64,000 nt of DNA, from positions 12,820 to 76,819 of the forward strand of contig JADYYF010000088.1 in NCBI GenBank assembly GCA_020853795.1. The letters are read 5' to 3'. Each line of letters opens with the position of its first letter. The first letter of the stretch is position 1. The position numbers and the translations under genes were made by a program. The notes under the pieces were generated by a model. That model saw only the letters and a list, made by a program, of their open reading frames with translations. It ran no database searches and was not told where the DNA came from. Shown in pieces: positions 19,747-57,752 of the stretch. This stretch comes from Candidatus Zixiibacteriota bacterium (lineage in GTDB: Bacteria > Zixibacteria > MSB-5A5 > CAIYYT01).

Positions 19747-19753
19747 GGCTATC

Positions 19754-41505: not shown

Positions 41506-43233
41506 GTGAAAATCCGTAAATCGATGCTTCTGATGCTCGGCCTGTTGCTGATCGGCGCGCTGATCGCCTCCGGTGTCGACGCCATGCCGCCGCACCCCAG
41601 CTTGCTGGAGAGCCAGGATCGTGACGGACGGCCGGAGTTGTCGCCGTTGCACAGAGTGTGTCCGCAGCCGACTCCCCTGGCCGGATCGCCGGACGGGCGT
41701 GGTTTCGGCGCCCCGCTGCGGTTCGGCGGTGCAGCCCCAACAGCGACCGGCAATATTCTGTGCATCCTAATCGAGTTTTCGGACAAGGCGGCGCAGGCTA
41801 CTGCGGTCTCGTTCGACAGCCTGATCTTCGGTAGTTATCAAGGCACAGTGAAGCACTATTACAATGAAGTCTCGTATGGCTCGTTCGACGTGGTGACCGT
41901 CAATTATCCGTCGACGATCGACTGGCAGACGGCACCGCAAACGTACGCTTACTACTGCAACGGCAATAACGGCCTCGGTTCCTATCCGCAGAACACGCAG
42001 AAGCTGTTCGAAGATGTGATCGATCTGGTTGATCCCGTTGTCAATTTCGCCAACTACGATAACAATGGGGACGGTTACGTTGATGCCGTGATGCTGGTGC
42101 ATACCGGCCCCGGCGCGGAACTGACCGGCAGCGATTTTGATATTTGGTCGCATGCCTGGGGCATCACCCCGAAATCGAAGGACGGCAAATGGCTGTCGCG
42201 CTACGCGATAATGCCGGAGTATTGGACGACTGTCGGCGACATGACTTGCGGCGTCTTTGCACACGAAATGGGTCATGCCTATTTTGAGTACCCTGACTTG
42301 TATGACATCGATTACACGTCGCGCGGCGTCGGCCGCTGGTCGCTGATGGCGGGCGGCTCGTGGAACGGCACACTCGGCAATTCGCCGGCGCATCTGGACG
42401 CCTGGTGCCGACTGCAGGCCGGCTTCACGACGGCCACCAACGTGCTGGCCAACCAGATCAACCAATCGATCCCGAATGTCGAGCAGAACGCCTCCGGCGC
42501 TATTTTCCGGCTCTGGACCAACGGCACGGTCGGGAATCAGTATTTCCTCGTGGAGAATCGGCAGAAACTCGGTTACGACGCACAACTGCCGGGCGCGGGG
42601 CTGTTGATCTGGCATATTGACGATGGCGTAAATCCGGGTGACAACAGCGACAACTCCGACGAGTGGTATCCGGGGCACACCAGTTCCGGGCATCTCCGCG
42701 TAGCGATCGAACAGGCGGACGGGCTCTTCGAACTTGAGAAGAACCTCGACAACGGTGATGCCGGCGATCCCTTCCCGGGAACTACGAATAACACGGCGTT
42801 CACCAGTCTGGCGACCCCCAATTCCAACGACTATTTGGGTCTCGGGACGCTGGTCTCGGTGACCAACATCTCGGCATCGGCCGCGACGATGAGCGCCGAT
42901 CTGGCGGTGAGCTTGATCGCCGATGTCGATGACTATGCCTACGACGGCGTATTGCCGGATGAGTATGCGCTCGACCAGAATTGGCCGAATCCGTTCAATC
43001 CCGTCACCAAGATCTCATTTGATTTGCCGAAGACCGGCGCAGTGACGCTGGCGGTCTACAATCTGCTGGGTGAAAAGATTGAGACGTTAGTGGACTGCGT
43101 GCTGCCGGCGGGCAAGCACTCGTTTAGTTGGCGGGCCGATCAGAACGGGCGCGACCTGGCTTCAGGTGTGTACTTCTACAAGTTAAATACCGAAGGCGCT
43201 TCGTTAAGCCGCAAGATGCTGCTGCTGAAGTAA
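41506..43233 (+). CDS. secreted M6 (InhA-like) zinc metalloprotease with a T9SS C-terminal sorting domain
   Basis: Signal peptide, VFAHEMGHAY (HExxH), and M6-like regions (YYNEVSYGSFDV, GDGYVDAVMLVHTG). The C-terminal type-A T9SS domain is NWPNPFNPVTKISFDLP...GVYFYKL. Confidence 0.75.
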   Translation: MKIRKSMLLMLGLLLIGALIASGVDAMPPHPSLLESQDRDGRPELSPLHRVCPQPTPLAGSPDGRGFGAPLRFGGAAPTATGNILCILIEFSDKAAQATAVSFDSLIFGSYQGTVKHYYNEVSYGSFDVVTVNYPSTIDWQTAPQTYAYYCNGNNGLGSYPQNTQKLFEDVIDLVDPVVNFANYDNNGDGYVDAVMLVHTGPGAELTGSDFDIWSHAWGITPKSKDGKWLSRYAIMPEYWTTVGDMTCGVFAHEMGHAYFEYPDLYDIDYTSRGVGRWSLMAGGSWNGTLGNSPAHLDAWCRLQAGFTTATNVLANQINQSIPNVEQNASGAIFRLWTNGTVGNQYFLVENRQKLGYDAQLPGAGLLIWHIDDGVNPGDNSDNSDEWYPGHTSSGHLRVAIEQADGLFELEKNLDNGDAGDPFPGTTNNTAFTSLATPNSNDYLGLGTLVSVTNISASAATMSADLAVSLIADVDDYAYDGVLPDEYALDQNWPNPFNPVTKISFDLPKTGAVTLAVYNLLGEKIETLVDCVLPAGKHSFSWRADQNGRDLASGVYFYKLNTEGASLSRKMLLLK

Positions 43234-43798: not shown

Positions 43799-46700
43799 CT
43801 ACTGCAGCTTGAGCATTTTGCGAATTTCGGAGTAGCTGCCCGCCTCGAGCCGGTAGAAGTAGACACCACTCGATACCGAACGCCCGAACTGATCGGTGCC
43901 ATCCCAGGTGACGCTGCGGAATCCGGCCTCCTCGTAGCTGTCGACGAGAATCCGGACGGTCTGGCCGAGGATATTGTGCACGGTCAGACGAACATTGCAG
44001 CCCTCCGGCAGCGCATAACTGATTTGCGTCTGCGGATTGAAGGGGTTCGGATAATTCTGCAGCAAGGTGAATTCGCGCGGCAGCACCGATTCTGCCGCCA
44101 GCGAACTGACGATCGCCAACATCCGATTGCCGCTCTCGCTGCCGGAGAGCGCTGCGAGCGCCGGTCGCAATTGGCGGAAGCCCTCGGCGTACTGCCGGAA
44201 GTCCACGGCATCGGTCAAGGTCGGCGCAATCAACTGGTGCGACGAACTCCAATTCTGCGCGATGGTCAAGAGATCGGCGATGTCGATTGCGCCGTCACCG
44301 TCGGCGTCGGCATAGGTTGCCCGCGGGTCAGCCCATTCTTGCGCCTGTTTGGGCGCCCAGCCGTTGCCTTCACCGTAGAGATTGCGCGCCGGGCCTTCCT
44401 GTCCGAAGAAGACACCCAGCGGCAGAACGTCGGCTTCGTTGACGTTTCCGTCATTATTGCAGTCCCCCGGATAAACTGCCGGTCCTGTGACAAAGCGGAA
44501 GACGTAGTCGTCCACGGGCGAGCCTTCGGCGAGATTGTTGTTGTTGCCATCGAGCGAATTGCCGGACTGATCGCGCACAGTGCCCAACAGGCGCACGATA
44601 ATGGTATCATACGGCGGCAGTTTCGCCGCCGGCACCAGCCGCAGGCGGGTGTTATCGTTCAACACCGTGAAGGTCCCGGTAATCTGCTGCTGAGCGAGCC
44701 GGGCGCGCACATCGATGCGTCCGGCATCGAGGGTCGAATCGGCGAGGGGCTCGTTGAGATCAATCAGGATATCGCTGCCGATCAGCACGTGATCGGCCTC
44801 AGCGGCCGGCACGGTCGCGACCACTTTCGGCGGTTTCTGTTCGGGAATCGCCTGTGCCGCCAGAGAGACATAGAGTGTTTCGGCTACCGGGTCGTTCGAG
44901 ACGATCCGCAGAGTCCCCTGCGCCGGTCCGATCGCGGTGGGATCAAACCGTACCGGGATCTTGAAGACGCCGCCGGGCTGAATCGCCGTGCTGGCAGTGG
45001 CCAGGGGCGTAAACTGCGGTTCATCACTGAGCACATTCGAAACGGTGAAGCTCAGGAGCGGGTCCTGGGGGAACTGCAAGCGATTGTTGACATACACGGT
45101 GTCGATGTCGGTCTCATCCTCCTGAACAAGGCCGAAATCGAGAACCGCCGGAGTCACTGCGGCAATCGACAACGGATTGGAATAGAACTGCAGTCTGATC
45201 GTATCGCGCGGCGCATTACGGGCGGAAACGGCGACGACCTGAAGATCATAAGCACCTTTGGCCAGGTCGTTCGACATGGTCACGGTCGCCGTGAAGCTCT
45301 GATTGGCGAGGACTTGGGAAGAACTCAATTGTACCGTTGCCGTTCCCCGCCGCGGCGTTTGCAGAACTGACGCGTTGAGATTGATGCCATATTCATACGG
45401 GCCAAACAAGGTATCGACGTTAATTGTGAAGCGGCGCTGCAACGGCGCAGTAAGGGAGTCGACCGCAAGGAGGCGCAGATCAAAGCCGGTCGCGCGAATA
45501 TAGTCGAGGCGAATGTCGCGATCACCGGTACCGCATTCGTTGGAGGCCACGAGGTCGACCTGGTAGATTCCCGGCCGTAAATAAGTGTAGGTCGGCGATT
45601 GCTGGGTCGAGGTGCCGCCATCGCCAAACGCCCATTCCCAGCCGGTAGCCGGATAGTCGGAACTGCCGGTGAAATTGACTTGCAGCGGCGCCGAGCCGGT
45701 GAGGGGTGTGCCGGAAACAGCTGCAGCCGGCGCATCGATCACGTTGATCGCGAGCAGCATCGTGTCCTCGCCACAACCGTTGGCGGCAATCAAGCGCACG
45801 TTGTTGGCGCCAACGATATTGAACTGATGGGAGGGATTGGCCGTGGTGGAAGTACCACCGTCGGAGAATTGCCAGGCGAAGGTCAGGTCGGCTCCAAGCG
45901 ACGTGCTGCTGAAGTTTACGGTCGTACCGACACAGATGGTGGTGTCGCTTGCCGTGAATGCGGCCTGCGGCGCCGCCAGTACCGTGATCGGCCGTGTGAT
46001 CGTCACGGTATCTGTCTCGCACATGAACGTGGCACTGATCGTCAGGTCACCGGCGATCAGGAACGTTTTCGGAGACATGATCTCATCCCAGACATAGAAC
46101 GTGTCGACGTCCCCATCGCCAAAATTCCAGATCGAAGTTTGCCAGTAGGCGTTGTAGGCGGGAGTAAAGTCGACCAATTCGCCGACGCAGGGCGTCAGCG
46201 GCAACCAGGTGAAGTCCTCGACCGCCAGCTTGCAGTTTTCGTACGGGCCGATGTCGTTGGCGGCACCGACGAAGCGGGAGCTGCCCGCGAAGTCGTTAAA
46301 GTGCGCCCAGTAGGGCAAATTGCGGCCGGCATCAATGAGCGGCGAATTCGAAGACAGGCGAAAATCGCCGCCGGCGAGATTGACGAAAAGCGGATTCACA
46401 CCCTCTAAATTGCCCGCGCCTTGCGCACAGTTGATCTGCGGGAAATCAATAGGGATATTCTGATAAAAGGCGTTGTTGAAGACGAAGCTGGTGTCGCCGT
46501 TGAAGCAATTCGTGGCCGTGCCGTAATTCTCGACAAAGATGTTGTTATAAATCAGCGCCTGAGCGAAAAGCTCGCGATAGATCGCGCCGCCGCCGTCAGC
46601 GGTGGCAATAAGACTACTGTCGCGATAGAACAAATTATTGAAGAGATTGGCGTTCGTGTAATCGGACAGGAACACGGCCCCGCCGTGCCCCTGCACGGCG

Positions 46701-47473
46701 GTATTGCCGATGAAGATATTATTCTGGATCAGAATTGCTGAATCCTGCATGGACGACGAACGGCCCACGACATGGATAGCGGCACCGTCACCTTGCAGGG
46801 AGCGGTTATCTTCGAAGATGTTATTAATGATTTTGGGTTCAGAGAACTCGCAGTCCATGGCCGCGCCGCGCGCGAAGGCGATATTCTGCGCGATATAGTT
46901 GTTGCTGATGATGGAGCGGGAGTACTGCATGGCGATTCCTGCGCCCCAGATATCGGATTCAACCGAACCGTTCTGGTAAATGCGGCAGTTGCGAATTTGC
47001 GGCGAGGAGTACACACCTTCCAATCCCTGCATACTGATTGCGGTCGGCCAATAGCGCGTAATCGTAAAGCCGTCGACGATCGTCGATTCCGAGATGCCGT
47101 AGCCGAAATAGAACGCCGTGCCGTCGCCGTTGCCGTCGAGGAAGGTCGAGTCGGCGCCGCCACGGCTCTTGAACACGACCGAGCCAAAGGTGATAGTGAG
47201 ATACTCCTGGTACGTTCCCGGCTTGACCATTACCGTGTCAGTGGCGTTGAAATTGCGCTGGTTATAGGCAAACTGGATCGTGCGGAAGGGATTGGCCTCG
47301 GTGCCGAAATTGGCGCCGACGGCATCGGTGCCGTTGGTTGCGACCCAAAGCAGGCGCGCTTGCGCCGTTGACGAGAGCAAGACCACGACAAGCAGGACGA
47401 AGATAACGATGTTGATTCGCCGATTACGGTGCGCCAATTTGGACCTCTCCATTTTCGATATACAAAACTCCAT
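43799..47473 (-). CDS. giant secreted multidomain protein. Domains: right-handed beta-helix, two PKD domains, Ig-like domains, a dockerin-like module and a T9SS C-terminal domain.
   Basis: Signal peptide. Repeated beta-helix NNxFxxN motifs. PKD signatures (WQFSDGGTST, WEWAFGDGGTST). Dockerin-like GDCNNDGNVNEADVLPL and DADGDGAIDIADLLTIAQNW. T9SS C-terminal domain NYPNPFNPQTQISYALP...GVYFYRL. The ATG at 47452 is an alternative start. Confidence 0.7.
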   Translation of the reverse strand: MEFCISKMERSKLAHRNRRINIVIFVLLVVVLLSSTAQARLLWVATNGTDAVGANFGTEANPFRTIQFAYNQRNFNATDTVMVKPGTYQEYLTITFGSVVFKSRGGADSTFLDGNGDGTAFYFGYGISESTIVDGFTITRYWPTAISMQGLEGVYSSPQIRNCRIYQNGSVESDIWGAGIAMQYSRSIISNNYIAQNIAFARGAAMDCEFSEPKIINNIFEDNRSLQGDGAAIHVVGRSSSMQDSAILIQNNIFIGNTAVQGHGGAVFLSDYTNANLFNNLFYRDSSLIATADGGGAIYRELFAQALIYNNIFVENYGTATNCFNGDTSFVFNNAFYQNIPIDFPQINCAQGAGNLEGVNPLFVNLAGGDFRLSSNSPLIDAGRNLPYWAHFNDFAGSSRFVGAANDIGPYENCKLAVEDFTWLPLTPCVGELVDFTPAYNAYWQTSIWNFGDGDVDTFYVWDEIMSPKTFLIAGDLTISATFMCETDTVTITRPITVLAAPQAAFTASDTTICVGTTVNFSSTSLGADLTFAWQFSDGGTSTTANPSHQFNIVGANNVRLIAANGCGEDTMLLAINVIDAPAAAVSGTPLTGSAPLQVNFTGSSDYPATGWEWAFGDGGTSTQQSPTYTYLRPGIYQVDLVASNECGTGDRDIRLDYIRATGFDLRLLAVDSLTAPLQRRFTINVDTLFGPYEYGINLNASVLQTPRRGTATVQLSSSQVLANQSFTATVTMSNDLAKGAYDLQVVAVSARNAPRDTIRLQFYSNPLSIAAVTPAVLDFGLVQEDETDIDTVYVNNRLQFPQDPLLSFTVSNVLSDEPQFTPLATASTAIQPGGVFKIPVRFDPTAIGPAQGTLRIVSNDPVAETLYVSLAAQAIPEQKPPKVVATVPAAEADHVLIGSDILIDLNEPLADSTLDAGRIDVRARLAQQQITGTFTVLNDNTRLRLVPAAKLPPYDTIIVRLLGTVRDQSGNSLDGNNNNLAEGSPVDDYVFRFVTGPAVYPGDCNNDGNVNEADVLPLGVFFGQEGPARNLYGEGNGWAPKQAQEWADPRATYADADGDGAIDIADLLTIAQNWSSSHQLIAPTLTDAVDFRQYAEGFRQLRPALAALSGSESGNRMLAIVSSLAAESVLPREFTLLQNYPNPFNPQTQISYALPEGCNVRLTVHNILGQTVRILVDSYEEAGFRSVTWDGTDQFGRSVSSGVYFYRLEAGSYSEIRKMLKLQ

Positions 47474-48224
47474 CCAACGGCAGCAAATCGCCGCGCCAGT
47501 TGACTAGTTGCAGCGTACTCGGATCGATATTGAGATGCGCCAATCCGGAGCCGACAGCGGTGAATGTCACTTGCAGCAAAGTCGCGTCCGCTGAGACGCC
47601 TTGTGGCTGCTGGTTGCCCTTCAAAGTATAACCCACGGCCAGGTAGTTCTCGCGTTCAACCGCAAAGAAGATCGGGTCGCGACCGGCAAAGAGATCTCCG
47701 GCTTCGAAGGCGGCGACTGACATCATGGTGGAATCAAATTCCAGTCGAAAACTCGCGCCGAAGAGTGAGTCAACGTTATAAATCCGTACCTGGAAAGTGG
47801 CCGAGTCGGCATCGGTCATGGCGTGATAGATTGGCGTCACCTTAATCATCGGAACTTGTGGTTCAAGATCGATGATGATCTCGGTTATCTGGCCACCCAA
47901 CACATCCGCCGTGCGGCTGCCGCTGTAGAGAGCCACCTCCTCGGCATCAAAAGCTGTCATCGTGAAGACGCGGTCCTCGCCGATCGGCACTTCCAGTTCA
48001 ATCGTCGCTTCGCCGTTTACCATTTCTGCCGACTGGGTGATGGTCTCCATGTCGGCGGCTGTCACGGCCAAGACTATGCCGGTGACATTGCTACCGACAC
48101 CCAAATCCTTGGCCAAGGCTGAAACCACGACTTCCCGGGCACTAGCCGACGAGGGCAGATTTCCTGAGCAGCCGGCGACCAGGAGCGCCGCGCCACCGAG
48201 CAAGAACAGAAGAAGATTGCGCAT
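47424..48224 (-). CDS. lipoprotein with a cohesin-like C-terminal domain
   Basis: Lipobox LLVAGCSG. The C-terminal approximately 140 aa (FQVRIYNVDSLFGASFRLEFDSTMMSV...ATLLQVTFTAVGSGLAHLNI...) fit the cohesin beta-sandwich sequence pattern. It overlaps the 3' end region of the giant dockerin-bearing gene. Confidence 0.45.
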   Translation of the reverse strand: MRNLLLFLLGGAALLVAGCSGNLPSSASAREVVVSALAKDLGVGSNVTGIVLAVTAADMETITQSAEMVNGEATIELEVPIGEDRVFTMTAFDAEEVALYSGSRTADVLGGQITEIIIDLEPQVPMIKVTPIYHAMTDADSATFQVRIYNVDSLFGASFRLEFDSTMMSVAAFEAGDLFAGRDPIFFAVERENYLAVGYTLKGNQQPQGVSADATLLQVTFTAVGSGLAHLNIDPSTLQLVNWRGDLLPLDGVLYIENGEVQIGAP

Positions 48225-49342
48225 CAGAAGCTAAACCTCCCTCCGAAAGTGAACTCAGTGCCGGAGACATCGATCTCCCGGTCTTGGGCGGCGTCCTTGT
48301 TGGCTTTGCCGTCGTGGAGCAACAAGCGGGCGAAGAAGGTGTAATGCTTGTTCGGAGCCGTATACTCCAGTCCTGCGCCATAGGAATAGACATCGGACTT
48401 GCCGAAGAAGTTGGTTGAACTCGATTCGTAATCGTTGGCGGACAGCGAGCGGTAGCCGCCGGTAACCGAAGCTCGCACCGTCGGGGCCAGCAGGTAGGAT
48501 AGCGTGCCGCCGAGAACCAACTTGTTGCTGTTGGAATTCTGTTCTTCAGTGGTCAGCGAATTGCCGAACAGGATCGAGTTCTTCTGGCGAGCGATGTAGC
48601 CTAAATACGCCTGCACTCCGGCTTTACCGAACTGGTTGCGTTGGCCCAGCAGAATCGACATCACGCCACCACTCTTAAAGACTTCGCGGCTCCCGACTTT
48701 GTCCGCCAGGTAGTAGCGGTACGACAGGTCAATATCGGTGCTCGACGTTTCGGTCGCGGAGGCGGTAGCGGAGAATTGGAGGCTGAACTCGTCGCCGGGA
48801 TTGTACTTCTCGCCGTTCTCCTGATAGGTAAAACCGCCATTGAGATTGTAGCTGACCGAGGCGCCGTAGGCAAGCCAGGCATTCGCTTCGGTAGCGAAGC
48901 CCAACTGCCCGATCAGGCCGAAGCCCTGAGTCACCTGCTTGACCGGCGTGGTCAAGTAATCATCAGAGATCAACTCCGCCAGCCGCACCTCCACCGTGTC
49001 CAACTCCGAGGTTCCGGAGGGAAGCTGGAGGCCGAGCGAAGCAAACATCCGGTCGTCGGCGAATGCGCGGTAGGCGCGCAGCGTCGTACCGGAAAATGAA
49101 GTCAGGGTCGCATCGAAATCGCCGTAATCGTAGTTTGAGCGGCTGATGGCGCTATTGAAGTGGACTTCCCAATTGTCCTGCAACGGGATCATTACCATGA
49201 AGGGGAAGGCTGACTGGGTGAGGTTAGTTTCCTCGCCGCCGGCAGTCAGCTTCCAGCTTTGGTAAACAACGCGCGCTGAAATTACTTTCGACTGGCCGTA
49301 CACGATTTGAGCGGTAAGATTCGCAGTCGCAAACAGAGTCAA
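48224..49342 (-). CDS. outer-membrane beta-barrel protein
   Basis: C-terminal ...GGRFSF. Alternating hydrophobic strands. The signal peptide is probably encoded from a non-ATG start just upstream (LIPTICALTLFATANLTAQ). Confidence 0.45.
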   Translation of the reverse strand: MTLFATANLTAQIVYGQSKVISARVVYQSWKLTAGGEETNLTQSAFPFMVMIPLQDNWEVHFNSAISRSNYDYGDFDATLTSFSGTTLRAYRAFADDRMFASLGLQLPSGTSELDTVEVRLAELISDDYLTTPVKQVTQGFGLIGQLGFATEANAWLAYGASVSYNLNGGFTYQENGEKYNPGDEFSLQFSATASATETSSTDIDLSYRYYLADKVGSREVFKSGGVMSILLGQRNQFGKAGVQAYLGYIARQKNSILFGNSLTTEEQNSNSNKLVLGGTLSYLLAPTVRASVTGGYRSLSANDYESSSTNFFGKSDVYSYGAGLEYTAPNKHYTFFARLLLHDGKANKDAAQDREIDVSGTEFTFGGRFSF

Positions 49343-49380
49343 AGCGCAGATCGTTGGAATCAGATAGCGATAACCAGGTT

Positions 49381-50685
49381 TCAGTTCGGCCTCCCTCGCA
49401 CAATCACGGTACCGCGGCTTTCGCGCGGCGCGACATATGGATTTTCATTTTCGGGAGCCACCCCGCGTGTCGATTCTTGCAGCCGCTGCATTACTTCGCT
49501 GCGATCGACTTGCTGCGCCGGTTGCTGTTCTTCGGTGCCGAGGCTGGTCAGTTCGACAACCTGGCTGATCGGTTTCAACTGGCCGTTATAGTCACTCAGG
49601 CCACCGAATTCCTGCAACGCTTGTTGCGCCAGACCGAAGTTCGGGTCTTCCTTGGCGGCTTCCTTGAACTCGGCCTCGGCCAGGGCATATCGTCCCTGGT
49701 CGACATATTCCAGCCCGCGCGAGTAAGCCACCAGCGCCAGCATCGATTCGGTTGCCGGTTTGGCAATCGCGTGGCGCAGTTCGGGGGTGATCTCATAGCC
49801 CATGGTCTGAATCAGATCAAGACTGAGGCGCTTCTGCATCTGGAAAAACTCATTGAGCTTCCCTTCCTGCTTCTGCGGATACTTCGCCATCCCGGGGCCG
49901 ACGTCGATAATGCCGGCGTCGATTTCCAGGCCGCTTTCGGAACGGCCGGTGAGTTTGCCGGTCACGACGCGCGCGGCACCAACCAGGCGGCCGACCCGGG
50001 GCGAGTGATACTTGTCGGAAAATTCCGTCTGGCTGAGTGCCAACTCCTTGCGCAATTGATCAAGTTCCAGCCGCTCCACCAGGCTGAGGCCTTCAACTTT
50101 TGCAAGATCGGCATAAACCAATTCGGCGATACCGCGCCCCAGAGGTTGGTATTGAGCGGGCAGCGAATCGGCGTCAAAACGAATCACCGCGACGGCGTTT
50201 GACGGGATCTTATCGGTATTGATGTTTTTCTCATTGGCCACGGCGCCGCTAACGATGGTCTTCAGATTCTGATCCTCTAACCACCGCAAGCGCTGTCGGA
50301 TCTCCGTCGCGATACGCGGGTCGTTCTTGCCGGAGACGTAAGTGCGGTACAGCGCCCGCGCCTCGTCATTCTTCCCCAGGCGCTCAAAGGTCATGCCTTG
50401 GTAAAGCGTCGTGGTGGCATCATCCGCCTTCAAACGCGCCGCCTGGTCCAGTGCGTTTTGCGCCTGCGTCAGGCTGTCGAGATTGAAGTACGCGATGCCC
50501 AGGGAACGCCAGGCTTCGGACTTGTTCGGAGAGGTTTCGGTCTCGCGCTGATAAACAGCGAGTGCCTTCTCATAATCGCCCCGCGACAGGGCGCGGGAGC
50601 CGGTACTTTGCCTGCCGGCGGCACAGCCGGCCACCAGGCCGGCCAGTGCGATCAGGACTGCCGCTTGGAGAAATCCGTTTCTCAT
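49381..50685 (-). CDS. TPR-repeat lipoprotein with a central CsgG/LpoB-like domain
   Basis: Lipobox GLVAGC. TPR-like helices flank a core AVIRFDADS...GRGIAELVYADLAKVEGLSLVERLELDQLRKELALSQTEF...VGRLVGAARVVTGKL typical of the CsgG-like fold. Confidence 0.5.
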   Translation of the reverse strand: MRNGFLQAAVLIALAGLVAGCAAGRQSTGSRALSRGDYEKALAVYQRETETSPNKSEAWRSLGIAYFNLDSLTQAQNALDQAARLKADDATTTLYQGMTFERLGKNDEARALYRTYVSGKNDPRIATEIRQRLRWLEDQNLKTIVSGAVANEKNINTDKIPSNAVAVIRFDADSLPAQYQPLGRGIAELVYADLAKVEGLSLVERLELDQLRKELALSQTEFSDKYHSPRVGRLVGAARVVTGKLTGRSESGLEIDAGIIDVGPGMAKYPQKQEGKLNEFFQMQKRLSLDLIQTMGYEITPELRHAIAKPATESMLALVAYSRGLEYVDQGRYALAEAEFKEAAKEDPNFGLAQQALQEFGGLSDYNGQLKPISQVVELTSLGTEEQQPAQQVDRSEVMQRLQESTRGVAPENENPYVAPRESRGTVIVRGRPN

Positions 50686-51692
50686 TGGGTATTCGACTTA
50701 ATCTCCAACTCTACGCGTTGCTTTTGCTCCGAGGCCAACACGAAATTCGGAGAGATTTCGAGCGCCTGGGCGAAGCACTTGTTTGCCTCTTCCAGTTTGC
50801 CCGCTTCGCGATAGGCCAGACCCTGACCGTAGAGGATCGTCGAAGCCAAACTGACGTCGGGAACGCGTCCGGATGCCTTCTTGATCGCCTCGGCCTGAAC
50901 GTTAAAGTAGGTCAAGATCGAATCGGCGACTTGGGTGATCAACTGACCGATCTTGCCTTCCTTGCCTTCGATATCCACGACTTTCTTCGGCAAACTGGTC
51001 TCGGTGTCGATGATGCGGGCAATGATCTTGACCTTATTGCCATCCATCTTCATGAAGGTACCGAAGACGAAGTTCTGCACGCCGACCAGCTTGCCAACCT
51101 GAACGCGGTTGTTCTGATCCGCCAGGTCGCTTTGAGAGAGTTTGAGTTCGTCGAAGATGTAATTGAAATTCTCGCGGGCCGGCACATAAACGACGCCGGA
51201 CTGCGTTAACGAGCTGTTGATCAACGCGGCGATCCCGACACCGGCGGTGGCATACTTCTCAGCATCCATGATCGAGCCGTTGTTGAAGTCGGAGGCAAAA
51301 ACGGTGACCGCTTTGGCCGCCTGCCCCGGTTTGAAGCCCGTATCGTTCACGAACTTGATCCAGGCGTGGCCAACCAGCTTTGGCTCTTTGTCGGGATTGA
51401 ACGCGGTGGTCGGGTCGAGCTTGACAAGCACGGCCAGGTAGTTCTGCGCCAAGTCGGGCTGTTTCGCCTGAGCAGCAGCGCGTGCCAATAGCTGGATGAT
51501 CTTGACGCTGTCGGGCGTGGTCATCCCCGGCGCGGCCAGCAGATCCTTGGCTTTCAGCACTACCTGATCAAATTGCGCGTCGTAGTAAAGGTTCTCTAAT
51601 TTCTTGAGATCGTCACTGACGGCGGCCGTAGCGTTTGCGACAAAGCAGACGGCGAGCACCAATGCGATCAGCGTCGTGGTTAGAGTCTTCAT
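50682..51692 (-). CDS. paralogous secreted TPR / CsgG-like domain protein
   Basis: Signal peptide. Core KAVTVFASDFNN...RVQVGKLVGVQNFVFGTF..GNKVKIIARIIDTETS with TPR-like ends. It overlaps the previous gene by 4 nt. Confidence 0.5.
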   Translation of the reverse strand: MKTLTTTLIALVLAVCFVANATAAVSDDLKKLENLYYDAQFDQVVLKAKDLLAAPGMTTPDSVKIIQLLARAAAQAKQPDLAQNYLAVLVKLDPTTAFNPDKEPKLVGHAWIKFVNDTGFKPGQAAKAVTVFASDFNNGSIMDAEKYATAGVGIAALINSSLTQSGVVYVPARENFNYIFDELKLSQSDLADQNNRVQVGKLVGVQNFVFGTFMKMDGNKVKIIARIIDTETSLPKKVVDIEGKEGKIGQLITQVADSILTYFNVQAEAIKKASGRVPDVSLASTILYGQGLAYREAGKLEEANKCFAQALEISPNFVLASEQKQRVELEIKSNTQ

Positions 51693-51745
51693 ACTGTTTT
51701 CCTTTCTTCAAACATCAGAAAGTTGACAAAATCACGCAAATCATT

Positions 51746-53728
51746 TTAGCGCTTGCGCAATGTAAACCGGACAACGTCATCCTGCCGAAGATTGACAAAC
51801 TGGGCGCGGCCACCGGTGCTGTAGTCCGGGTGCTCCACCCAGATCTTATGCGGTCCGGCCAACAGCTTGAGATTACAAGGAGTTTCTGTGTCCTCTATCT
51901 TGACGTTGTCCACAATGACTTGCGCCGCAACGCCCGGACCGTCGTTGGGTTCGCGAGCGCCGATACTCAGTTTGTATTCTTTGTTCTCCAACGAAAAGAC
52001 CTTGCTGGCTTCTGTGCCGGTCACCATCACCACATCTGTTAGCCTGCCCATATCGGTGACGATTCCGACCTCATGATTTCCTGGAGCGAGATCACCAAAT
52101 GTCACGGGTTGTCCATCATATTTTACGCCTTTTCCGTCGAAGATGACCTGAACCGGTTCGAAAATCTTGTAGTTTTCGACGGTTACGCGGATTGAACCCA
52201 GCGCCGTCGGGACTAATCCCTGTAATGTCAACGACTTGGATTCGACAGAATTGCCAATCCGAATCGTTTCGTTGACTGGTTTCATCTCTCGACCAGAAAC
52301 CTTGATTGCATAATCACCGGGGGCCAGGCCGGTGTAGTCCAGCGCTGTCCCCGTATACGCCTGACTCTGCCCGGCGAATTCAACGGTCACAGGCACAAAT
52401 GCCTGATAGTTGTTCAGAGTTAGTTTCAGACCGCCGGTAGCAGGCGTCTCCTGGAAACCGCGCCAAATTTTAATCAGCGCCGGTGGGAAACGACCCTCGG
52501 CAAAATCGAGCTTCGGGTTGGAACTGTAAAGGCCGCGCAGAAGTGTGGTTGCTTCAGTGATCTTCTGATTCATCAGCATTGCAGACGCCAGAAGTTGGAC
52601 GATTTCCTGTTGCTGCTGCGGTGACGCGCCCGATGAGTTCCGCAGATTGGTCAGCAGGGATTCAGCCAGGGGATATTGCTTGTCGGAGTAACGATCCATC
52701 GCCAGTTGCATGGAGTCGGCGAAGGTGGCTTGTGCCGGGAGCTTGCCGTCTTCCCTGCCGCTCAAGAGCATCACGCCCGCAACCACCGCTGCAACTATGA
52801 CCACGCCGATCAAGGCATACAGCCACTTGCGCGAACCGCCGGGCTTGGAGTACTCGACGGCGATCGTCTTGTCGAGGCTGGCGGTGTCGGTGCGCACAGT
52901 CTTGTCGTCGGTCCCCGTCAGCGGCAGGGCGCGGAGGGCCTGCGACATTTCGCCGGCACTCTGGTAGCGCTTCTCCGGCTTCTTCTCCAACGATTTCATT
53001 ACGATCTGCTCGAGCGGACGCGGTAAATCATTGCGGTACTGAAGAGGCGACGGCGGGTCTTTCTCCAAGTGACCGGACATGATTTCATAGTCGGTATCCG
53101 CCTCAAACGGCGTGTGCGCGGTCAAGACCTGATAAAGCGTGACGCCCACCGAATACAGGTCGCTGCGGTTGTCGATGTCTTTGCCGCGAATCTGCTCCGG
53201 TGACATGTAGAGCAGCGAGCCGGCACCGGTCCCGGTGCGGGTGAGCTTGGCGCTGCCGGCGACTTTGGCGATGCCGAAGTCGGTGATCTTGACCGTACCT
53301 GACTTGGTCAGCATGATGTTGGACGGTTTGATGTCGCGGTGAACTATCCCGTTTTGGTGGGCGTAGCCAAGCGCTGAGAGCAATTGGTCGAAGATGGGAA
53401 CGACTTCCGCCGCCGAAAGAAAGCGGCGGTCGCGCAGAACCTTGTCAAGATTCGTGCCGTCGACAAACTCCATCACGATGAAGTTGAGGCCGTCGAGTTG
53501 ATCGTAATCGTAGACGCGCACAATGTTGGGGTGCTCGAGCCGCGCCAACGCCAGCGCCTCGCGCTCGAAGTAAGCGGCCAGCATCTCATCGGAAGCGACT
53601 TGCGGATGAAGGATCTTGAGCGCGACCTGCTTCTGCAGCTTGGTGTGATACGCCAAGAAGACCGCCCCGAATCCCCCTTCGCCGAGCTTATCAATGATGT
53701 CGTATTTCCCGACGCGCTTTAAGTCCAT
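51746..53728 (-). CDS. Hanks-type Ser/Thr protein kinase with TM anchor and extracellular PEGA-domain repeats
   Basis: Kinase motifs GEGGFGAVF, VALK, HRDIKPSNIML and DFGIAK. TM segment LYALIGVVIVAAVVAGVML. PEGA-like repeats include GPHKIWVEHPDYSTGG and GDYAIKVSGREMKPV. Confidence 0.8.
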   Translation of the reverse strand: MDLKRVGKYDIIDKLGEGGFGAVFLAYHTKLQKQVALKILHPQVASDEMLAAYFEREALALARLEHPNIVRVYDYDQLDGLNFIVMEFVDGTNLDKVLRDRRFLSAAEVVPIFDQLLSALGYAHQNGIVHRDIKPSNIMLTKSGTVKITDFGIAKVAGSAKLTRTGTGAGSLLYMSPEQIRGKDIDNRSDLYSVGVTLYQVLTAHTPFEADTDYEIMSGHLEKDPPSPLQYRNDLPRPLEQIVMKSLEKKPEKRYQSAGEMSQALRALPLTGTDDKTVRTDTASLDKTIAVEYSKPGGSRKWLYALIGVVIVAAVVAGVMLLSGREDGKLPAQATFADSMQLAMDRYSDKQYPLAESLLTNLRNSSGASPQQQQEIVQLLASAMLMNQKITEATTLLRGLYSSNPKLDFAEGRFPPALIKIWRGFQETPATGGLKLTLNNYQAFVPVTVEFAGQSQAYTGTALDYTGLAPGDYAIKVSGREMKPVNETIRIGNSVESKSLTLQGLVPTALGSIRVTVENYKIFEPVQVIFDGKGVKYDGQPVTFGDLAPGNHEVGIVTDMGRLTDVVMVTGTEASKVFSLENKEYKLSIGAREPNDGPGVAAQVIVDNVKIEDTETPCNLKLLAGPHKIWVEHPDYSTGGRAQFVNLRQDDVVRFTLRKR

Positions 53729-53910
53729 TTAAGTTTTACGCTTCCAGCTACTTAGTCATTACGGGTCCAGCTTTAATTGTTATCGGCATTTTGGTGCAGG
53801 GTCAACAAAAAACCACGACCTTTCTGCGAACTTCGAGCCGTCGCAGTCCAGAAATGACTCACCCCGATCGGCTTCGACCGGGGTGGAAATTCCTAAAATT
53901 GTCGTTTGGC

Positions 53911-55938
53911 TCAGAAGGGATTGCAGGGGGGGTACGGTCCACCGCCGAAGATGTACGAGATCAGGGCGACCGCATCCGAGATGTTCACCGGCATGCTGCA
54001 GTTGGCATCACCGGCTTCGTCAACGGGGGTCGGTGCGGGGCCGCTGGCAAAGATGTACTGGATGACATAGACGGCGTCGCTGACGTTGATGGCGCCGCTG
54101 TTGTCAGCATCTCCATGCATGACCAGCACGAGCACATCGCCGGAATCGGTATCGCTGACTCCCACAACGCTGGTGGCATCGGCAGTGACGCTGACCGAAT
54201 TGACGGTCGCGGGCATCACGCCGGCCGGCGCCGTCAAATTCACGGTAACGTCGGCCTTGTCGCCCGCCGCCACGGTTACCGACGAAGGCGAGAAGGTCTG
54301 CGCCCAGCCAAGGGAATTGGTCGCGCTGACGTTATAGGTCTCATCGAGCAGGCCGGTATTCTCGATCTGGAAGAGCAGCGACGTGCCGGTATTCGAGTAG
54401 ACGCTGTCGGCGGCCGTGGCGATGACGTTGACCGCGTAGTTCGGAGCAGTGGTGTACGAGGCGCCATAAGTGTAGCTGCGGTCGTTGATCGACTGAGAGA
54501 CGTTGGTAATGACCATGATCAGCGCATCGTAGTTGCCGGCATTGGGCAGGGTGAAGGAGCCATCGCCGGTGACATTGAGCGACATCTGATTCTCGACGTA
54601 GGTGTTGGTCGGGGTCATCTTCCAGGCGAGTAAGTTGACGATCCAGGGTACCGAGTTGTCGCCGTTGAAGTCGACCGTGAAAGTGGCGGCGCCGGCCGGA
54701 ATGTTAAAACGCACGTAGTTGGAGCCGTAAGCATCGGGGAACTTGCCGGTAATGGGCGTCTGGCCGGAGGTCGGATATGTTGTGTGGGTGCGCACCAGCG
54801 GCACCTGCAGGTAATGGGAAGCCTCGACGTAGTGAAGTCCGTCACTACGGCTGCCGGTGATGAAATTCCACATGGTAAACCGCGCCACCTGCTGGTTAAT
54901 ATTCTGCCCGTAGTTGTTGGTCAGGATATTGCCGGTGCCGACATACGAGGTCGTGGTGCGCAGTTCATCCCAAATCTGCGGCATGATCGCGACGCCGAAA
55001 TTTTCCTGCAGGAAGGTCGGCCAGATGAATGCCGCATACATGTGCAGACCGGTATTAGAATTCAAGGCGTAGTCCGGGACACTAAAGAACTCCGTCATAT
55101 AGTTGTAGTTGTCGTTCACCGGATCAAAGACCACATCCTCCATCCAAGTGGAAGAAGCTTCCATGAACCAGGAGTTCTCGCCGACGTCATAGGCAAACTG
55201 CACGGCGTGGTAGTATTCGTGGGCGACAGTCACTTTGGCAGCGCCCTTCTGGTCGCCGTCGGGGTCATCATTATTCGGGAAACCGATGAAATTGCGATGA
55301 ACCGAGATATAGCTAATGGCATCGTTCCAGGCTTCAGGTCCGGCGCCTTCCGGCTGGGTGTAGCCGTAGTAGCCCATTTCTTCGGTGTAAATATCATAGC
55401 GGGCGTCGCCGCCGGCCACTCCATCCGAGGGCGGCTTGCGGTGGCCGAGGTTGGTGACCTCGGTGCGGTAAGAGCTGTCGGCGTAGGCGGCAAGCCATTC
55501 AACATAATCGGGGATGCCGTTCGCCGGGCTGGTATCGGCGGTGGGGACGGCATCCGAGCCGGTGATATTGTAGTGAATCTTAAACTCACCACCGGGAGAA
55601 TTGTAAGTGTTCGTTGCTGACGGCCGGGCCATGATCTCACGGAATTGTGCCTGCCCCTCCGGGGTAAACTGGTCCCAGTTCTGGCGGATTTCGAGGATGA
55701 TCTCGGTAGCGCACTTGGCGACTTCGATCGCGTCGGACTGAAAGTCCGCCGGCAGGGCCTGCGGTTCGCGGATCGACATCATTTCGTAGAGCATCTTTTG
55801 TTCGTAGTTTAACTCGCCGTTGGCGTAGGCATCCTCGATCAGGCGATAGGACGATTGGCGGGCGGCGGATGACGGAATCGCCGCGGCAAGCACGACGATC
55901 GCCAACAGCAGCAAGGTACGTTTTAATCCGATTTGCAT
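53911..55938 (-). CDS. secreted thermolysin-like (HExxH...E) gluzincin with a C-terminal dockerin-like tandem module
   Basis: Signal peptide. TVAHEYYHAVQFAYDVGENSWFMEASSTWMED (compare thermolysin AHELTHAV..NEAISD). C-terminal GDADNSGAINVSDAVYVIQYIFASGP...GDANCSMPVNISDAVALISYIFGGGP. The ATG at 55938 with a GGGAG RBS was chosen as the start. The track ORF starts at 55965. Confidence 0.55.
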   Translation of the reverse strand: MQIGLKRTLLLLAIVVLAAAIPSSAARQSSYRLIEDAYANGELNYEQKMLYEMMSIREPQALPADFQSDAIEVAKCATEIILEIRQNWDQFTPEGQAQFREIMARPSATNTYNSPGGEFKIHYNITGSDAVPTADTSPANGIPDYVEWLAAYADSSYRTEVTNLGHRKPPSDGVAGGDARYDIYTEEMGYYGYTQPEGAGPEAWNDAISYISVHRNFIGFPNNDDPDGDQKGAAKVTVAHEYYHAVQFAYDVGENSWFMEASSTWMEDVVFDPVNDNYNYMTEFFSVPDYALNSNTGLHMYAAFIWPTFLQENFGVAIMPQIWDELRTTTSYVGTGNILTNNYGQNINQQVARFTMWNFITGSRSDGLHYVEASHYLQVPLVRTHTTYPTSGQTPITGKFPDAYGSNYVRFNIPAGAATFTVDFNGDNSVPWIVNLLAWKMTPTNTYVENQMSLNVTGDGSFTLPNAGNYDALIMVITNVSQSINDRSYTYGASYTTAPNYAVNVIATAADSVYSNTGTSLLFQIENTGLLDETYNVSATNSLGWAQTFSPSSVTVAAGDKADVTVNLTAPAGVMPATVNSVSVTADATSVVGVSDTDSGDVLVLVMHGDADNSGAINVSDAVYVIQYIFASGPAPTPVDEAGDANCSMPVNISDAVALISYIFGGGPYPPCNPF

Positions 55939-55952
55939 GGGGTCTCCCGGGG

Positions 55953-57752
55953 TTAGTATTGGCATGGCGGCGGGCCGCCGGCAAAGATATACGAAATCAG
56001 ATGCACGGCATCACTAATGGAACCGATGCCGTCGCAGTTGACATCGGCGATGTAGCTCGGGTAGGGTGTAGCGCCGCCGGCGAAGATCCAGTTGATCAAG
56101 AAGACGGCGTCGGAGATGCTGATCTGAGTGTCGCCGTCGACATCGCCGGGACGGCGAAAATGCAGATGATACGTGAAATTGTACTCGGTGCCGAAGTGCG
56201 CGGCGACAGCGGGAATGAACGTGACGCGCAGCACATTCCGGAAATCGGCGATCCAGACCTTGGCCTTGCCTCCGGCAAGCGGCACGAGCAGCGAATCAAA
56301 GTAGTTGCCGTCGCCGTAATCCACCACATACGCCAATGTCCAAGTGGTGGCGTTCAGGCCGGTGAAGTCGAACCCGACGATGCCGTCATAGCCGTTAAGA
56401 TTTTCAAAGACGATATAATTCGAGGCATACGGCTGCGGCGGAGTCACCGAGAAATTACCCGAATCGGGGAGGTCGTAGTGATAAGCCATCACATCGACTG
56501 GTGGATAATCGGGCGCGGATTCATAGTGTGTGCCGGTGGAGCGGCTGTTGGTGTAGTAGTTCCACAGCACGAAGCGCGTAAACTCGCGTTCGAACGAGCT
56601 TCCGGCCGAGTCGATTACAGCGCCCCAGGCTACGATTGCGGAGGTCGTGCGGCATTTTGCCCACAGATCGCGCATGATGATGGCACCGAAGCGTTCCTCA
56701 AGGTACTTCGGCCACACGAACGAAGCGTAGCGATGAAAATCGCCGGCCTGTAACCCGACCTCCGGATAGTTGAAGAATTCCGGTAGGTAGTTGTAGTTGT
56801 CATTCACTTGCGGAAACGCCATCTCTTCCATCCAGGTGGACGACATCTCCATAAAGAAACTAGCTTCCGAAACATCGTAGGCGAACTGCACGGCGTGGTA
56901 GAACTCGTGGGCAATCGTGACTTTGAGCGCACCCATCACATCGCCCTCGGGATCGTCGTTCGGTGGAAATCCCGGCGAGAAGGTGCTGTGGATCACGATA
57001 TGGGAGGCGTAATCGTTCCACGATTCGGGACCAGGTGACTCGGGAGTCGTGTACCCGTAGTATGGAATTTTTTGGAAGTAGATATCGTATTGATCGCTGC
57101 CGCCCTGGCCGTTGTCGACCGGCGGTTTAAGATGCGCCAGTTGGTCGAGTTCATAGGACCAAACGGAATCGGCGAGGTTCGCGGCACGTTCGATGAAGTC
57201 GGGAATTCCGGACGAATCATTGTCGGCCGTCGGTACAGCGTGCAGGCCAGTGAGGTCGAAGAAAAGCCGGAAGTAGCCTTGCGGCGACTCGACGTAGAAT
57301 TGCGTCTGTGGTCGGGCCATAAACATCTTGGCATACGAGCCGTAAAGTTCGGGATTGGCGTTGATCACGGCAAAGGCCTCGACGAGGGCATCAGTCGCGC
57401 ACTTCGAGATGGCGGCGGATTCGCGCGAATAGCGCTGGGGAAGCGATTGCGGTTCAAGAATTGCCATTGCCCGATAGATCGTGGCCATGTCGGCACTAAT
57501 CAAGCTCGACTGCTGGTCGGCAGCGAGTTGTTGTTCGAAAAGAGATGGCGAAGTCGTCGGAGCCTCATGAGCCAGGAGTGCCGGGCTGAGCAAGGCGATG
57601 TAAAGAAGTGATAGAAGTCTGCGCAATTCAACAACCTTCAGGACAAGACGGTACGGTGACTGGCACGAAATACACTTCGACGAATGCAATATACTCCCGC
57701 CGTTGCGGTTTGTCAAGTACAGTTCCGGCAATGGCTTAAGGGTCGTTTTCAA
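55953..57752 (-). CDS. paralogous secreted gluzincin with a C-terminal dockerin-like tandem module
   Basis: TIAHEFYHAVQFAYDVSEASFFMEMSSTWMEE. C-terminal GDVDGDTQISISDAVFLINWIFAGG...VNCDGIGSISDAVHLISYIFAGGPPPCQY. The true start is probably an internal GTG near 57635, just before the signal peptide LRRLLSLLYIALLSPALLA. Confidence 0.55.
   Translation of the reverse strand: MKTTLKPLPELYLTNRNGGSILHSSKCISCQSPYRLVLKVVELRRLLSLLYIALLSPALLAHEAPTTSPSLFEQQLAADQQSSLISADMATIYRAMAILEPQSLPQRYSRESAAISKCATDALVEAFAVINANPELYGSYAKMFMARPQTQFYVESPQGYFRLFFDLTGLHAVPTADNDSSGIPDFIERAANLADSVWSYELDQLAHLKPPVDNGQGGSDQYDIYFQKIPYYGYTTPESPGPESWNDYASHIVIHSTFSPGFPPNDDPEGDVMGALKVTIAHEFYHAVQFAYDVSEASFFMEMSSTWMEEMAFPQVNDNYNYLPEFFNYPEVGLQAGDFHRYASFVWPKYLEERFGAIIMRDLWAKCRTTSAIVAWGAVIDSAGSSFEREFTRFVLWNYYTNSRSTGTHYESAPDYPPVDVMAYHYDLPDSGNFSVTPPQPYASNYIVFENLNGYDGIVGFDFTGLNATTWTLAYVVDYGDGNYFDSLLVPLAGGKAKVWIADFRNVLRVTFIPAVAAHFGTEYNFTYHLHFRRPGDVDGDTQISISDAVFLINWIFAGGATPYPSYIADVNCDGIGSISDAVHLISYIFAGGPPPCQY

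Follow-up and report, generated by a model that had tools for sequence, protein, structure and literature searches.

In the PelBC exporter, the PelB barrel bears twelve PelC lipoproteins, which have the TolB-N/CsgG/PelC/LpoB fold (PMC12141448). The Rcs system signals across the outer membrane with a complex of the lipoprotein RcsF and a β-barrel (PMC4942254). RcsF-OMP-IgaA, NlpE-CpxA and QseG-QseE all pass information from a lipoprotein of the outer membrane to a signalling protein of the inner membrane (PMC4942254, PMC6075780). The locus described here may follow the logic of RcsF, NlpE and QseG, where an inner-membrane transducer receives its information from a lipoprotein (for RcsF, from a lipoprotein and a barrel), although the parts show no homology. 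In place of a phosphorelay or histidine kinase, its candidate transducer is a Hanks-type kinase with a PEGA ectodomain. A soluble paralogue of the lipoprotein, dedicated to this system, would stand in between.

We analyzed a gene array on the minus strand of a 64-kb stretch of DNA (the window). Transcription runs from the kinase gene (53728..51746, 660 aa) through a gene for a 336-aa protein (51692..50682) to one for a 434-aa protein (50685..49381), and all three open reading frames (ORFs) lie exactly at the coordinates first listed for them. The kinase had been described as following the other two; this is true in plus-strand coordinates only, since the kinase gene is transcribed first. The 53-nt gap behind it contains an AGGAAA ribosome-binding site, and the 336-aa and 434-aa genes overlap by 4 nt (ATGA). 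Downstream on the same strand are genes for an outer-membrane β-barrel (48224..49384; listed ORF from 49342), a 266-aa Cohesin-domain lipoprotein (47424..48224) and a 1224-aa surface protein (43799..47473), the last of the array. The 336-aa, 434-aa and barrel genes, which are genes two to four of the module proposed below, overlap or abut. Upstream, also on the minus strand, are genes for an MXAN_6640-family HExxH metalloprotease with a C-terminal dockerin (53911..55965; NCBIfam NF045524, E = 1.5e-67; Dockerin_1, 25.6 bits) and a second, paralogous DUF6055 metalloprotease with a dockerin (55953..57752). A consensus scan, whose overall counts were not above those of shuffled sequences, marked two features in the stretch that separates the kinase gene from the metalloprotease genes (minus strand, 53776..53885): a terminator-like hairpin (53885..53860, 11 pairs) and, after it, a promoter-like site (53805..53776). 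The gene at 53911..55965 probably belongs to a separate transcript. No PP2C or FHA genes were found within the 64-kb window.

The 336-aa and 434-aa proteins are paralogues (BLASTP, 28% identity over 178 aa, E = 6e-15, spanning the core and the C-terminal TPR). Read directly from the sequence, the 434-aa protein has a lipobox (L17-V-A-G-C21, with Cys21), which the 336-aa protein lacks; the signal peptide of the latter is of the Ala-X-Ala type (ATA/A). This fits the view of two secreted paralogues of which one is putatively lipidated. The asymmetry is conserved, with lipobox-like motifs in 53 of 80 lipoprotein genes and in 2 of 43 genes for the soluble paralogue. In the 336-aa protein, the signal peptide is followed by a helical N-terminal domain (24-122), an α/β core (124-274; 50871..51323) and one C-terminal TPR (286-316). 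The lipoprotein has N-terminal TPRs (30-122), a core (158-308; 49762..50214) and a C-terminal TPR (312-352), and ends in a disordered linker and a short β-strand motif, GTVIVRGR.

Three methods, Pfam and Foldseek among them, support a TolB-N/CsgG/PelC/LpoB fold for both cores. Pfam CsgG (PF03783) matched both proteins above its threshold (24.3 bits, and 22.6 bits for the lipoprotein, vs 20.8), limited to profile positions 8-102 of 210, and the top Foldseek match was CsgG. The earlier note had proposed a CsgG/LpoB-like core. The cores do model as this fold, and the comparison with CsgG holds for its soluble periplasmic α/β domain but not for its channel part. The two transmembrane β-hairpins of CsgG are absent: nothing matches the C-terminal half of the profile, the core spans ~150 aa, and in the AF2 model of the 336-aa protein (overall pLDDT only moderate at 72.7, with low confidence at 177-201) it forms a short three-strand sheet with strands of at most 10 residues and no inserted long hairpins. 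Because these hairpins are missing, the curli pore is a poorer analogy than PelC under PelB or an RcsF-type sensor made of lipoprotein and barrel. The locus shares with the CsgG system the α/β domain and may share a lipidated subunit, as the lipobox of one paralogue suggests, but supplies a separate barrel and no csgE/F, csgA/B-like or amyloid subunit genes, which were also missing from the related loci whose neighbors we examined. The LpoB globular-domain fold was likewise matched by the core, with Pfam LpoB (PF13036) below threshold and for the 336-aa protein only (15.6 bits vs 22.3, E = 0.015); Pfam TolB_N also scored below threshold. In contrast to LpoB and the TolB N-terminal domain, the core here is flanked by TPRs, is not followed by a TolB-type six-bladed β-propeller and has no PBP, Pal or TolA partner. 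The partner of LpoB is a class A PBP with a UB2H domain; neither the cluster nor the related loci with examined neighbors have a PBP gene. Many structural neighbors of the core form rings beneath the outer membrane.

The kinase is a bitopic inner-membrane protein (Pfam Pkinase, E = 9e-57, 192.9 bits), as had been suggested. Its cytoplasmic catalytic domain (aa 9-256; 52961..53704) retains all motifs: GxGxxG (16), VALK (35-38), HRDIKPSN (130), DFG (150) and SPE (176). One transmembrane helix (303-323; 52760..52822; hydropathy peak 2.79 over 19 residues) leads to a periplasmic helical domain (330-428; 52445..52741), two tandem β-rich repeats (429-508 and 509-584; 51977..52444) and a C-terminal PEGA domain (585-660; 51749..51976). 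Of the PEGA repeats proposed for the ectodomain, one is a Pfam PEGA match (PF08308, residues 602-657, 24.1 vs 20.8 bits). The two β-rich repeats are similar to each other (Smith-Waterman score 100 vs a shuffle mean of 23.9, z = 17.9) and PEGA-like by pattern, but are not Pfam PEGA domains. Each of the 10 kinases sampled, whether orthologous or analogous, carries PEGA (E down to 2e-31). The kinase shares with PknB/Stk1 the catalytic domain, a single transmembrane helix, repeated extracytoplasmic domains and, in some lineages, PP2C/FHA partners. It differs in having PEGA β-sandwiches instead of PASTA repeats, and in its diderm envelope with dedicated outer-membrane partners. We rejected a PASTA kinase identity: the PknB/Stk1 model NF033483 scored 350 bits against a cut-off of 450, over residues 7-292 only, and the ectodomain is helical and PEGA-like.

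The periplasmic helical domain of the kinase aligned with the N-terminal domain of the 336-aa protein (hhalign probability 87.5%, E = 3.6e-6, 93 gapless columns), whereas controls against the N-terminal TPRs of the lipoprotein gave 9.9% and 2.8%. This alignment indicates that the two domains are homologous. The shared domain is confined to one kinase clade, that of the window kinase. An N-terminal extension of 123-160 aa was present in 32 of 32 kinase-adjacent paralogues; in the five loci with a paralogue and no kinase (L038-L042) it measured just 19-54 aa, and the N-terminal domain of ~100 aa is missing there. Among the best 45 long relatives of the core domain, none was fused to a kinase.

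The barrel has ~16 strands, a helix in loop 3 and a C-terminal Phe, belongs to no Pfam family and gave a confident structure model. Its listed ORF starts at a TTG (49342). With a start at the CTG at 49384, which overlaps the stop codon of the preceding gene, the protein would regain a signal peptide. The structural matches (CymA 19.5, BcsC 19.0, FhaC 18.5, PelB 15.5 and PorV 14.2) are generic and single out no functional class. In the outer membrane, T9SS cargo may have a cognate partner such as PorP/SprF beside type-B cargo or the PorV shuttle, and in both those pairs and our loci a barrel gene stands beside a large T9SS-sorted protein with variable passengers. The barrel showed neither a family-model match nor specific structural similarity to PorP/SprF or PorV.

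The Cohesin lipoprotein (Pfam Cohesin, 25.6 vs 24.1 bits) follows the barrel and is conserved in Zixibacteria-type loci. The 1224-aa protein, which has orthologues elsewhere, carries β-helix, PKD, Big_5, dockerin and T9SS C-terminal sorting domains. In ~11 loci, genes for large T9SS-sorted proteins separate the lipoprotein gene from the barrel gene or directly adjoin the two; the sorting domain ends 8 of 8 such proteins, and their passenger domains are unrelated. The neighboring dockerin metalloproteases carry no T9SS signal.

In a collection of one genome per species (185,579 species), 222 stretches, mostly from uncultivated phyla, contain relatives of the lipoprotein. The kinase and both paralogues occur together in 29 loci from Zixibacteria, KSB1 and Rhodothermales/Salinibacter-type genomes, with the kinase upstream of the paralogue pair, so the trio is kept together well beyond this lineage. 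The outcome that would have refuted the earlier note, unrelated central folds and a trio that is not conserved, was thus not seen. Kinase and soluble paralogue were both present in 29 loci and both missing from 22; 5 had the paralogue only and none the kinase only (P = 4e-11, Fisher test ignoring phylogeny and shared ancestry). The trio as the unit, as the earlier note had it, did not hold up: the most constant partner of the lipoprotein is the barrel, which accompanies it in 65 of 67 loci from at least 6 phylum-level groups (directly adjacent in 58), and this pair also occurs without any kinase. In Gemmatimonadaceae it occurs by itself in housekeeping surroundings (a DnaB_C-like gene, YebC and RuvCAB), with neither a kinase nor a surface-protein gene close by; its universal role can therefore be neither cargo handling nor kinase coupling. 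PP2C genes lie upstream in L007, L045 and L052, and genes for FHA proteins in L007, L062, L063 and L064.

Together, the kinase, the two paralogues and the barrel form a gene module, conserved in several phyla, that probably links an outer-membrane platform to intracellular signalling. We propose a joint explanation for its four parts, an inner-membrane PEGA Hanks kinase, a soluble 336-aa protein, an outer-membrane-anchored 434-aa lipoprotein and a dedicated ~16-strand barrel, and give it somewhat less than an even chance. The lipoprotein would sit under the barrel as PelC does under PelB, possibly as a ring, with its TPRs and C-terminal strand holding the barrel. Any likeness to the PelC oligomer is one of analogy: neither PelB nor PelC showed detectable sequence homology, the lipoprotein carries the TPRs here whereas the barrel carries them in PelB, the locus adds a soluble paralogue and a Ser/Thr kinase, and pel synthesis or modification genes were absent from the loci with examined neighbors. 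Lipoprotein and barrel together would form a platform that serves large cell-surface proteins in T9SS-bearing lineages; here its putative clients are the cohesin lipoprotein, the dockerin-tagged metalloproteases and the 1224-aa adhesin-like T9SS cargo. The soluble paralogue may pair with the lipoprotein core and, as a periplasmic adaptor, use its additional helical domain at the N-terminus to couple platform and kinase ectodomain. The kinase would then turn the platform's state into cytoplasmic Ser/Thr phosphorylation, an output that PP2C and FHA partners may read in other lineages. Gene content, folds, strict co-occurrence and shared domains are observations, whereas the physical contacts, any ring, the direction of signalling and the kind of cargo are inferences. 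"Envelope-sensing or secretion-gating", the wording of the earlier note, is still the right level at which to describe the likely function.

A curli-like amyloid channel of the CsgG type, built by one or both paralogues, could be argued from the above-threshold Pfam scores and the Foldseek match. It is already contradicted by the missing transmembrane hairpins, and the paralogue without a lipobox, the lack of csgA/B/E/F-like genes and the separate barrel gene also count against it; we regard it as close to untenable. It is scarcely less improbable that these envelope genes are unrelated and share no more than synteny. Related MAGs supply most loci, so some of the conservation is inherited, but the arrangement is kept down to 27-35% identity across phyla with wholly different flanking genes, the paralogue N-terminal domain tracks the strictly co-occurring kinase, and the genes overlap translationally.

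We consider it unlikely that lipoprotein and barrel form a PelBC/AlgKE-like export pore for a polymer or for dockerin proteins, with the kinase gating from the inside out and not sensing. In the loci examined we found neither a glycosyltransferase or synthase nor any other export component of the inner membrane, the similarity of the barrel is generic, and a soluble paralogue with a kinase-correlated N-terminal domain would be superfluous for a pore. Hanks kinases with extracytoplasmic repeat domains are also usually sensors. To a similar degree we doubt that the pair is a housekeeping tether, an LpoB/TolB-like connector from the outer membrane to peptidoglycan or the inner membrane, with a PknB-like kinase monitoring envelope geometry or peptidoglycan and the surface genes as mere neighbors. 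The fold class includes LpoB and TolB-N, and the Gemmatimonadaceae setting would fit, as would TamB and a TamA-like Omp85 adjoining the pair in Calditrichia (L039), signal peptidase S26 adjoining it in KSB1 (L038), and an FHA-SLT lytic transglycosylase fusion, which is encoded upstream of the kinase in L007 and has a relative in L062. However, no module encodes a PBP, Pal, TolA or OmpA-like peptidoglycan-binding domain, the LpoB and TolB_N scores are below threshold, and the repeated insertion of T9SS cargo with unrelated passengers between or beside both genes is hard to credit to coincidence.

The proposed module could also be read more specifically, as an undescribed trans-envelope system of the FCB superphylum, the relatives of Bacteroidota. 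The lipoprotein/barrel complex would be its ancestral core and a checkpoint or anchoring station for T9SS and cohesin/dockerin proteins, whose occupancy the paralogue would report to the PEGA kinase, and the whole would parallel the Rcs or Cpx lipoprotein sensors, with a Ser/Thr kinase as transducer. We offer this reading tentatively and think it rather doubtful. To our knowledge, lipoprotein/barrel complexes that signal to inner-membrane transducers are described almost only from Proteobacteria (Rcs, Cpx, QseEG), where they act via phosphorelays. This candidate uses different parts: its lipoprotein has the PelC/CsgG fold, its barrel belongs to an uncatalogued family, and a soluble paralogue and a Hanks kinase of the PEGA type complete it. 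In several lineages it lies beside type IX secretion cargo. In the Zixibacteria version, a cohesin-dockerin protease set is linked to the module, an unusual feature for a diderm. If our proposal is correct, PEGA ectodomains would acquire a function, the very large and mostly unstudied core-domain family (44,770 cluster representatives at E ≤ 1e-3) would gain a functional context, and there would be a handle on how non-proteobacterial diderms monitor or organize their cell surface.

We observed three complete ORFs in the interval 49381-53728, as the earlier note had claimed. All are on the minus strand, and the order of transcription is therefore kinase (660 aa, 53728..51746), 336-aa protein (51692..50682) and 434-aa protein (50685..49381). 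The kinase stop lies 53 nt from the start of the 336-aa gene, which is preceded by an AGGAAA ribosome-binding site, and the 336-aa and 434-aa genes overlap as ATGA. Directly downstream of the 434-aa gene, also on the minus strand, is a 372-aa ORF for an outer-membrane beta-barrel (49342..48224). The G+C content of the window is ~58% and composition does not shift at the locus; close homologues are annotated as Candidatus Zixiibacteriota.

The 336-aa and 434-aa proteins proved to be paralogues, as proposed (28% identity, 178 aa, E = 6e-15). Likewise, one of the two secreted proteins is predicted to be lipidated: the 434-aa protein carries a lipobox (LVAGC21) and the 336-aa protein an Ala-X-Ala signal peptide. 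A lipobox-like motif was present ahead of 53 of 80 lipoprotein genes at related loci, compared to 2 of 43 paralogues. Both proteins had been described as embedding a CsgG/LpoB-like core between TPR-like helices. Pfam TPR matches do flank the CsgG match in both, and the CsgG match itself was just over the gathering score and confined to profile positions 8-102 of 210. In the AF2 model of the 336-aa protein (16 input sequences, pLDDT 72.7), an alpha/beta core (130-275) lies between a helical domain at the N-terminus and TPR helices at the C-terminus. Foldseek, as an independent method, placed CsgG, GNA1162, TolB, LpoB and PelC at the top for this core, and the CsgG/LpoB-like fold is confirmed. 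The core comprises only ~150 residues and the CsgG membrane hairpins have no counterpart in it; a CsgG-style pore is therefore excluded, and we rejected a true CsgG channel.

TPR matches overwhelmed a PDB search that used a profile of the whole lipoprotein family. A core-only profile matched 44,770 cluster representatives (E ≤ 1e-3, among 1.84 billion representatives), and the core family contains giant proteins (1000-2800 aa) in which the core domain is matched in up to 7 stretches. The 45 longest of the best 150 matches, in a domain scan that covered lengths up to about 1750 aa, were multi-copy CsgG/FlgO/LpoB proteins, also with TPR, FG-GAP, WD40 or beta-helix domains. The list of the 25 commonest families for these 45 did not include Pkinase, and we make no fusion (Rosetta-stone) argument. 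A weak NCBIfam match to TIGR04510, a cyclase that has a comparable periplasmic module, is the only hint at fusions elsewhere.

The 660-aa protein matched Pfam Pkinase (E = 9e-57) and retains the Gly-rich loop (16-21), VALK (35-38), HRDIKPSN (130-137), DFG (150-152) and SPE (176-178) motifs. With these intact motifs and one hydrophobic helix (residues 303-323), it appears to be an active Hanks kinase of bitopic topology. Its extracytoplasmic part begins with a helical stretch (330-428), followed by two beta-rich repeats in tandem (429-508 and 509-584); aligned with one another, these reach z = 17.9 (Smith-Waterman vs shuffles). Self-BLAST of the ectodomain gave no matches, and Smith-Waterman with the shuffle control was used in its place. 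The C-terminal PEGA domain scored 24.1 bits, against a Pfam threshold of 20.8 bits. The plural of the earlier note, "PEGA repeats", is therefore a little generous, since a single repeat formally matches PEGA. PEGA was present in 10/10 kinases at the equivalent position of divergent loci, some with two or three copies and with E-values reaching 2e-31.

The barrel ORF matched no specific Pfam family, and no sequence relative was found in the PDB. Its C-terminal residue is Phe, and the barrel orthologues have signal peptides. The listed N-terminus (49342) is too short, and no ATG, GTG or TTG start in the region 49342-49384 yields a signal peptide. In frame with the gene, a CTG at 49384 (minus) overlaps the TGA of the lipoprotein gene as CTGA, and a start there would yield a 25-aa signal peptide, MKPGYRYLIPTICALTLFATANLTA, followed by QIVYGQ (junction NLTA/QIVYGQ). 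The orthologous barrel genes have a 4-nt overlap with the upstream neighbour and ordinary start codons. Two explanations are possible for the CTG: a non-canonical coupled start, or a point change in this genome.

We scanned one genome per GTDB species with the lipoprotein family alignment, which gave 222 relatives, and searched the six-frame ORFs of the best 80 loci with a profile of each window protein. These 80 came from Zixibacteria, KSB1, Calditrichia, Poribacteria, Rhodothermales/Salinibacter, Cytophagia-type Bacteroidota and Gemmatimonadaceae. The barrel was 3' of the lipoprotein in 65 of the 67 loci with at least 1.3 kb downstream, directly adjoining it in 58 and separated by one large gene in the other 7. 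Among loci with at least 3.2 kb upstream, kinase and paralogue were both present in 29, both absent in 22, and the paralogue was alone in 5 and the kinase in 0 (Fisher p = 4e-11, not corrected for phylogeny). This pattern upholds the pairing with the kinase put forward in the earlier note, and mere synteny of unrelated envelope genes was rejected. Gemmatimonadaceae have the lipoprotein-barrel pair only, between a DnaB_C-like gene and yebC-ruvCAB; a check of the neighbours there for export or signalling genes turned up only housekeeping genes and an opposite-strand PglZ response regulator. The counts and this bare pair mark the lipoprotein-barrel pair as the ancient core, and the kinase and soluble paralogue are a coupled add-on to it. 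Two further arrangements were seen: in a Calditrichia MAG (L039, 2579-8435) the paralogue-lipoprotein genes are directly downstream of genes for TamB and a TamA-like Omp85, and at a KSB1 locus (L038) they come after a gene for a fusion of signal peptidase S26 and an RDD domain. Salinibacter-type genomes have both the lipoprotein and its paralogue; a kinase was not seen at L071, the single Salinibacter locus recovered, where about 1 kb is available 5' of the paralogue. Related Salinivenus and Rhodothermaceae MAGs contain the full module (L045, L052, L063, L086).

Orthologous loci (41-64% identity) share the same eight-gene array: two DUF6055/MXAN_6640 HExxH metalloproteases with dockerins (only one in L009, the most distant locus), the kinase, the 336-aa gene, the 434-aa gene, the barrel, a cohesin lipoprotein and a ~1200-aa beta-helix/PKD/Big_5/dockerin protein with a T9SS sorting domain. 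In the window, a gap of 182 nt between the metalloprotease genes and the kinase holds a strong terminator-like hairpin of 11 pairs, 8 of them G-C, along with a promoter-like site (53776-53885, minus; consensus matches only). These matches suggest that the array forms two transcription units, and the six-gene run from kinase to adhesin may therefore be one transcript.

Two observations point to the soluble paralogue as the link to the kinase. The core is preceded by 123-160 residues in 32/32 kinase-adjacent paralogues, and by 19-54 residues, signal peptide only, at the five loci with a paralogue and no kinase (L038-L042). In the window's clade, the N-terminal helical domain of the paralogue is homologous to the periplasmic helical domain of the kinase (hhalign 87.5%, E = 3.6e-6; 93 gapless columns). 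Both helical domains scored only 9.9% and 2.8% against the lipoprotein TPR domain as a control, and the similarity is therefore not generic TPR similarity. Kinases of other clades have no helical domain, and their PEGA repeats start at once. PP2C and FHA genes are upstream of the kinase in Rhodothermales-type loci; neither was found within the 64-kb window.

We observed that 434-type lipoproteins (window 49384-49629; loci L010-L089) end in a last TPR, a low-complexity linker and a short beta-strand-like motif. The motif is GTVxVRG in Zixibacteria (GTVIVRGR in the window), AKVTIIIKRP in Gemmatimonadaceae and GELIIQLDLP in KSB1 and Cytophagia; Rhodothermales lipoproteins have a proline-rich tail in its place. 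One possibility is that this motif is a strand docked on, or within, the barrel.

At loci from Rhodothermales, Bacteroidota and Poribacteria, the lipoprotein and barrel genes have a large gene between them or immediately next to them. All 8 such proteins tested carry a C-terminal T9SS sorting domain on unrelated passengers (Kre9/Ig, NIDO, FG-GAP, ASH-type Ig, PQQ-like propellers). A cohesin-domain protein comes after the barrel in Zixibacteria-type loci. The window cluster of this diderm Zixibacterium, all minus strand, has a cohesin lipoprotein (47424-48224), a 1224-aa dockerin-bearing T9SS cargo (43799-47473) and two MXAN_6640-type HExxH metalloproteases with dockerin (53911-55965 and 55953-57752), which have signal peptides and no T9SS sorting domain. 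A fourth, weak dockerin protein is further upstream (61857-63833, minus). Convergent with the cluster, on the plus strand, are a DUF5723/TraF_2-like outer-membrane protein (40187-41491) and a Peptidase_M6 with a T9SS sorting domain (41506-43233). Peptidase_M6 and the upstream OMP-sized gene also adjoin the orthologous clusters in L001, L002 and L009, with Pfam DUF5723 reported for the latter gene in L009 and only faint in L001. Elsewhere in the window, a short ORF (19072-19758, minus) matched a T9SS C-terminal sorting domain profile (E = 2e-10).

With the gene content, folds, co-occurrence and domain sharing of the module observed, a trans-envelope relay is its best-supported reading. We infer its contacts, stoichiometry, signal direction and cargo. 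The lipoprotein would sit under its barrel as PelC does under PelB, a solved precedent (PMC12141448), and may also engage the barrel through its conserved C-terminal strand. This platform would have been repeatedly recruited beside large surface proteins, and the soluble paralogue would couple it to the PEGA kinase, which would signal in the cytoplasm. RcsF/OMP signalling (PMC4942254) and QseG-QseE (PMC6075780) are alike in relay logic, but their parts are unrelated.

A rival to this relay is that the lipoprotein and barrel form a kinase-gated, PelBC/AlgKE-like export pore. Another rival is a housekeeping tether between the outer membrane and peptidoglycan, accompanied by a PknB-like monitor. 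At L007 (1910-3457), a gene 5' of PP2C and the kinase encodes a fusion of an FHA domain and an SLT lytic transglycosylase, and a full-length relative occurs at L062 (5854-7443; phmmer E = 1.5e-96); this fusion hints that phospho-signalling by the module may act on peptidoglycan remodelling.

Each domain type of the module is already known, and in the literature that could be searched we came across no account of the module. We rate it as akin to known lipoprotein/barrel complexes coupled to inner-membrane signalling, or to PelBC-like platforms. More tentatively, and with some doubt on our part, the module may be a checkpoint for surface proteins in the FCB superphylum that has so far gone undescribed.
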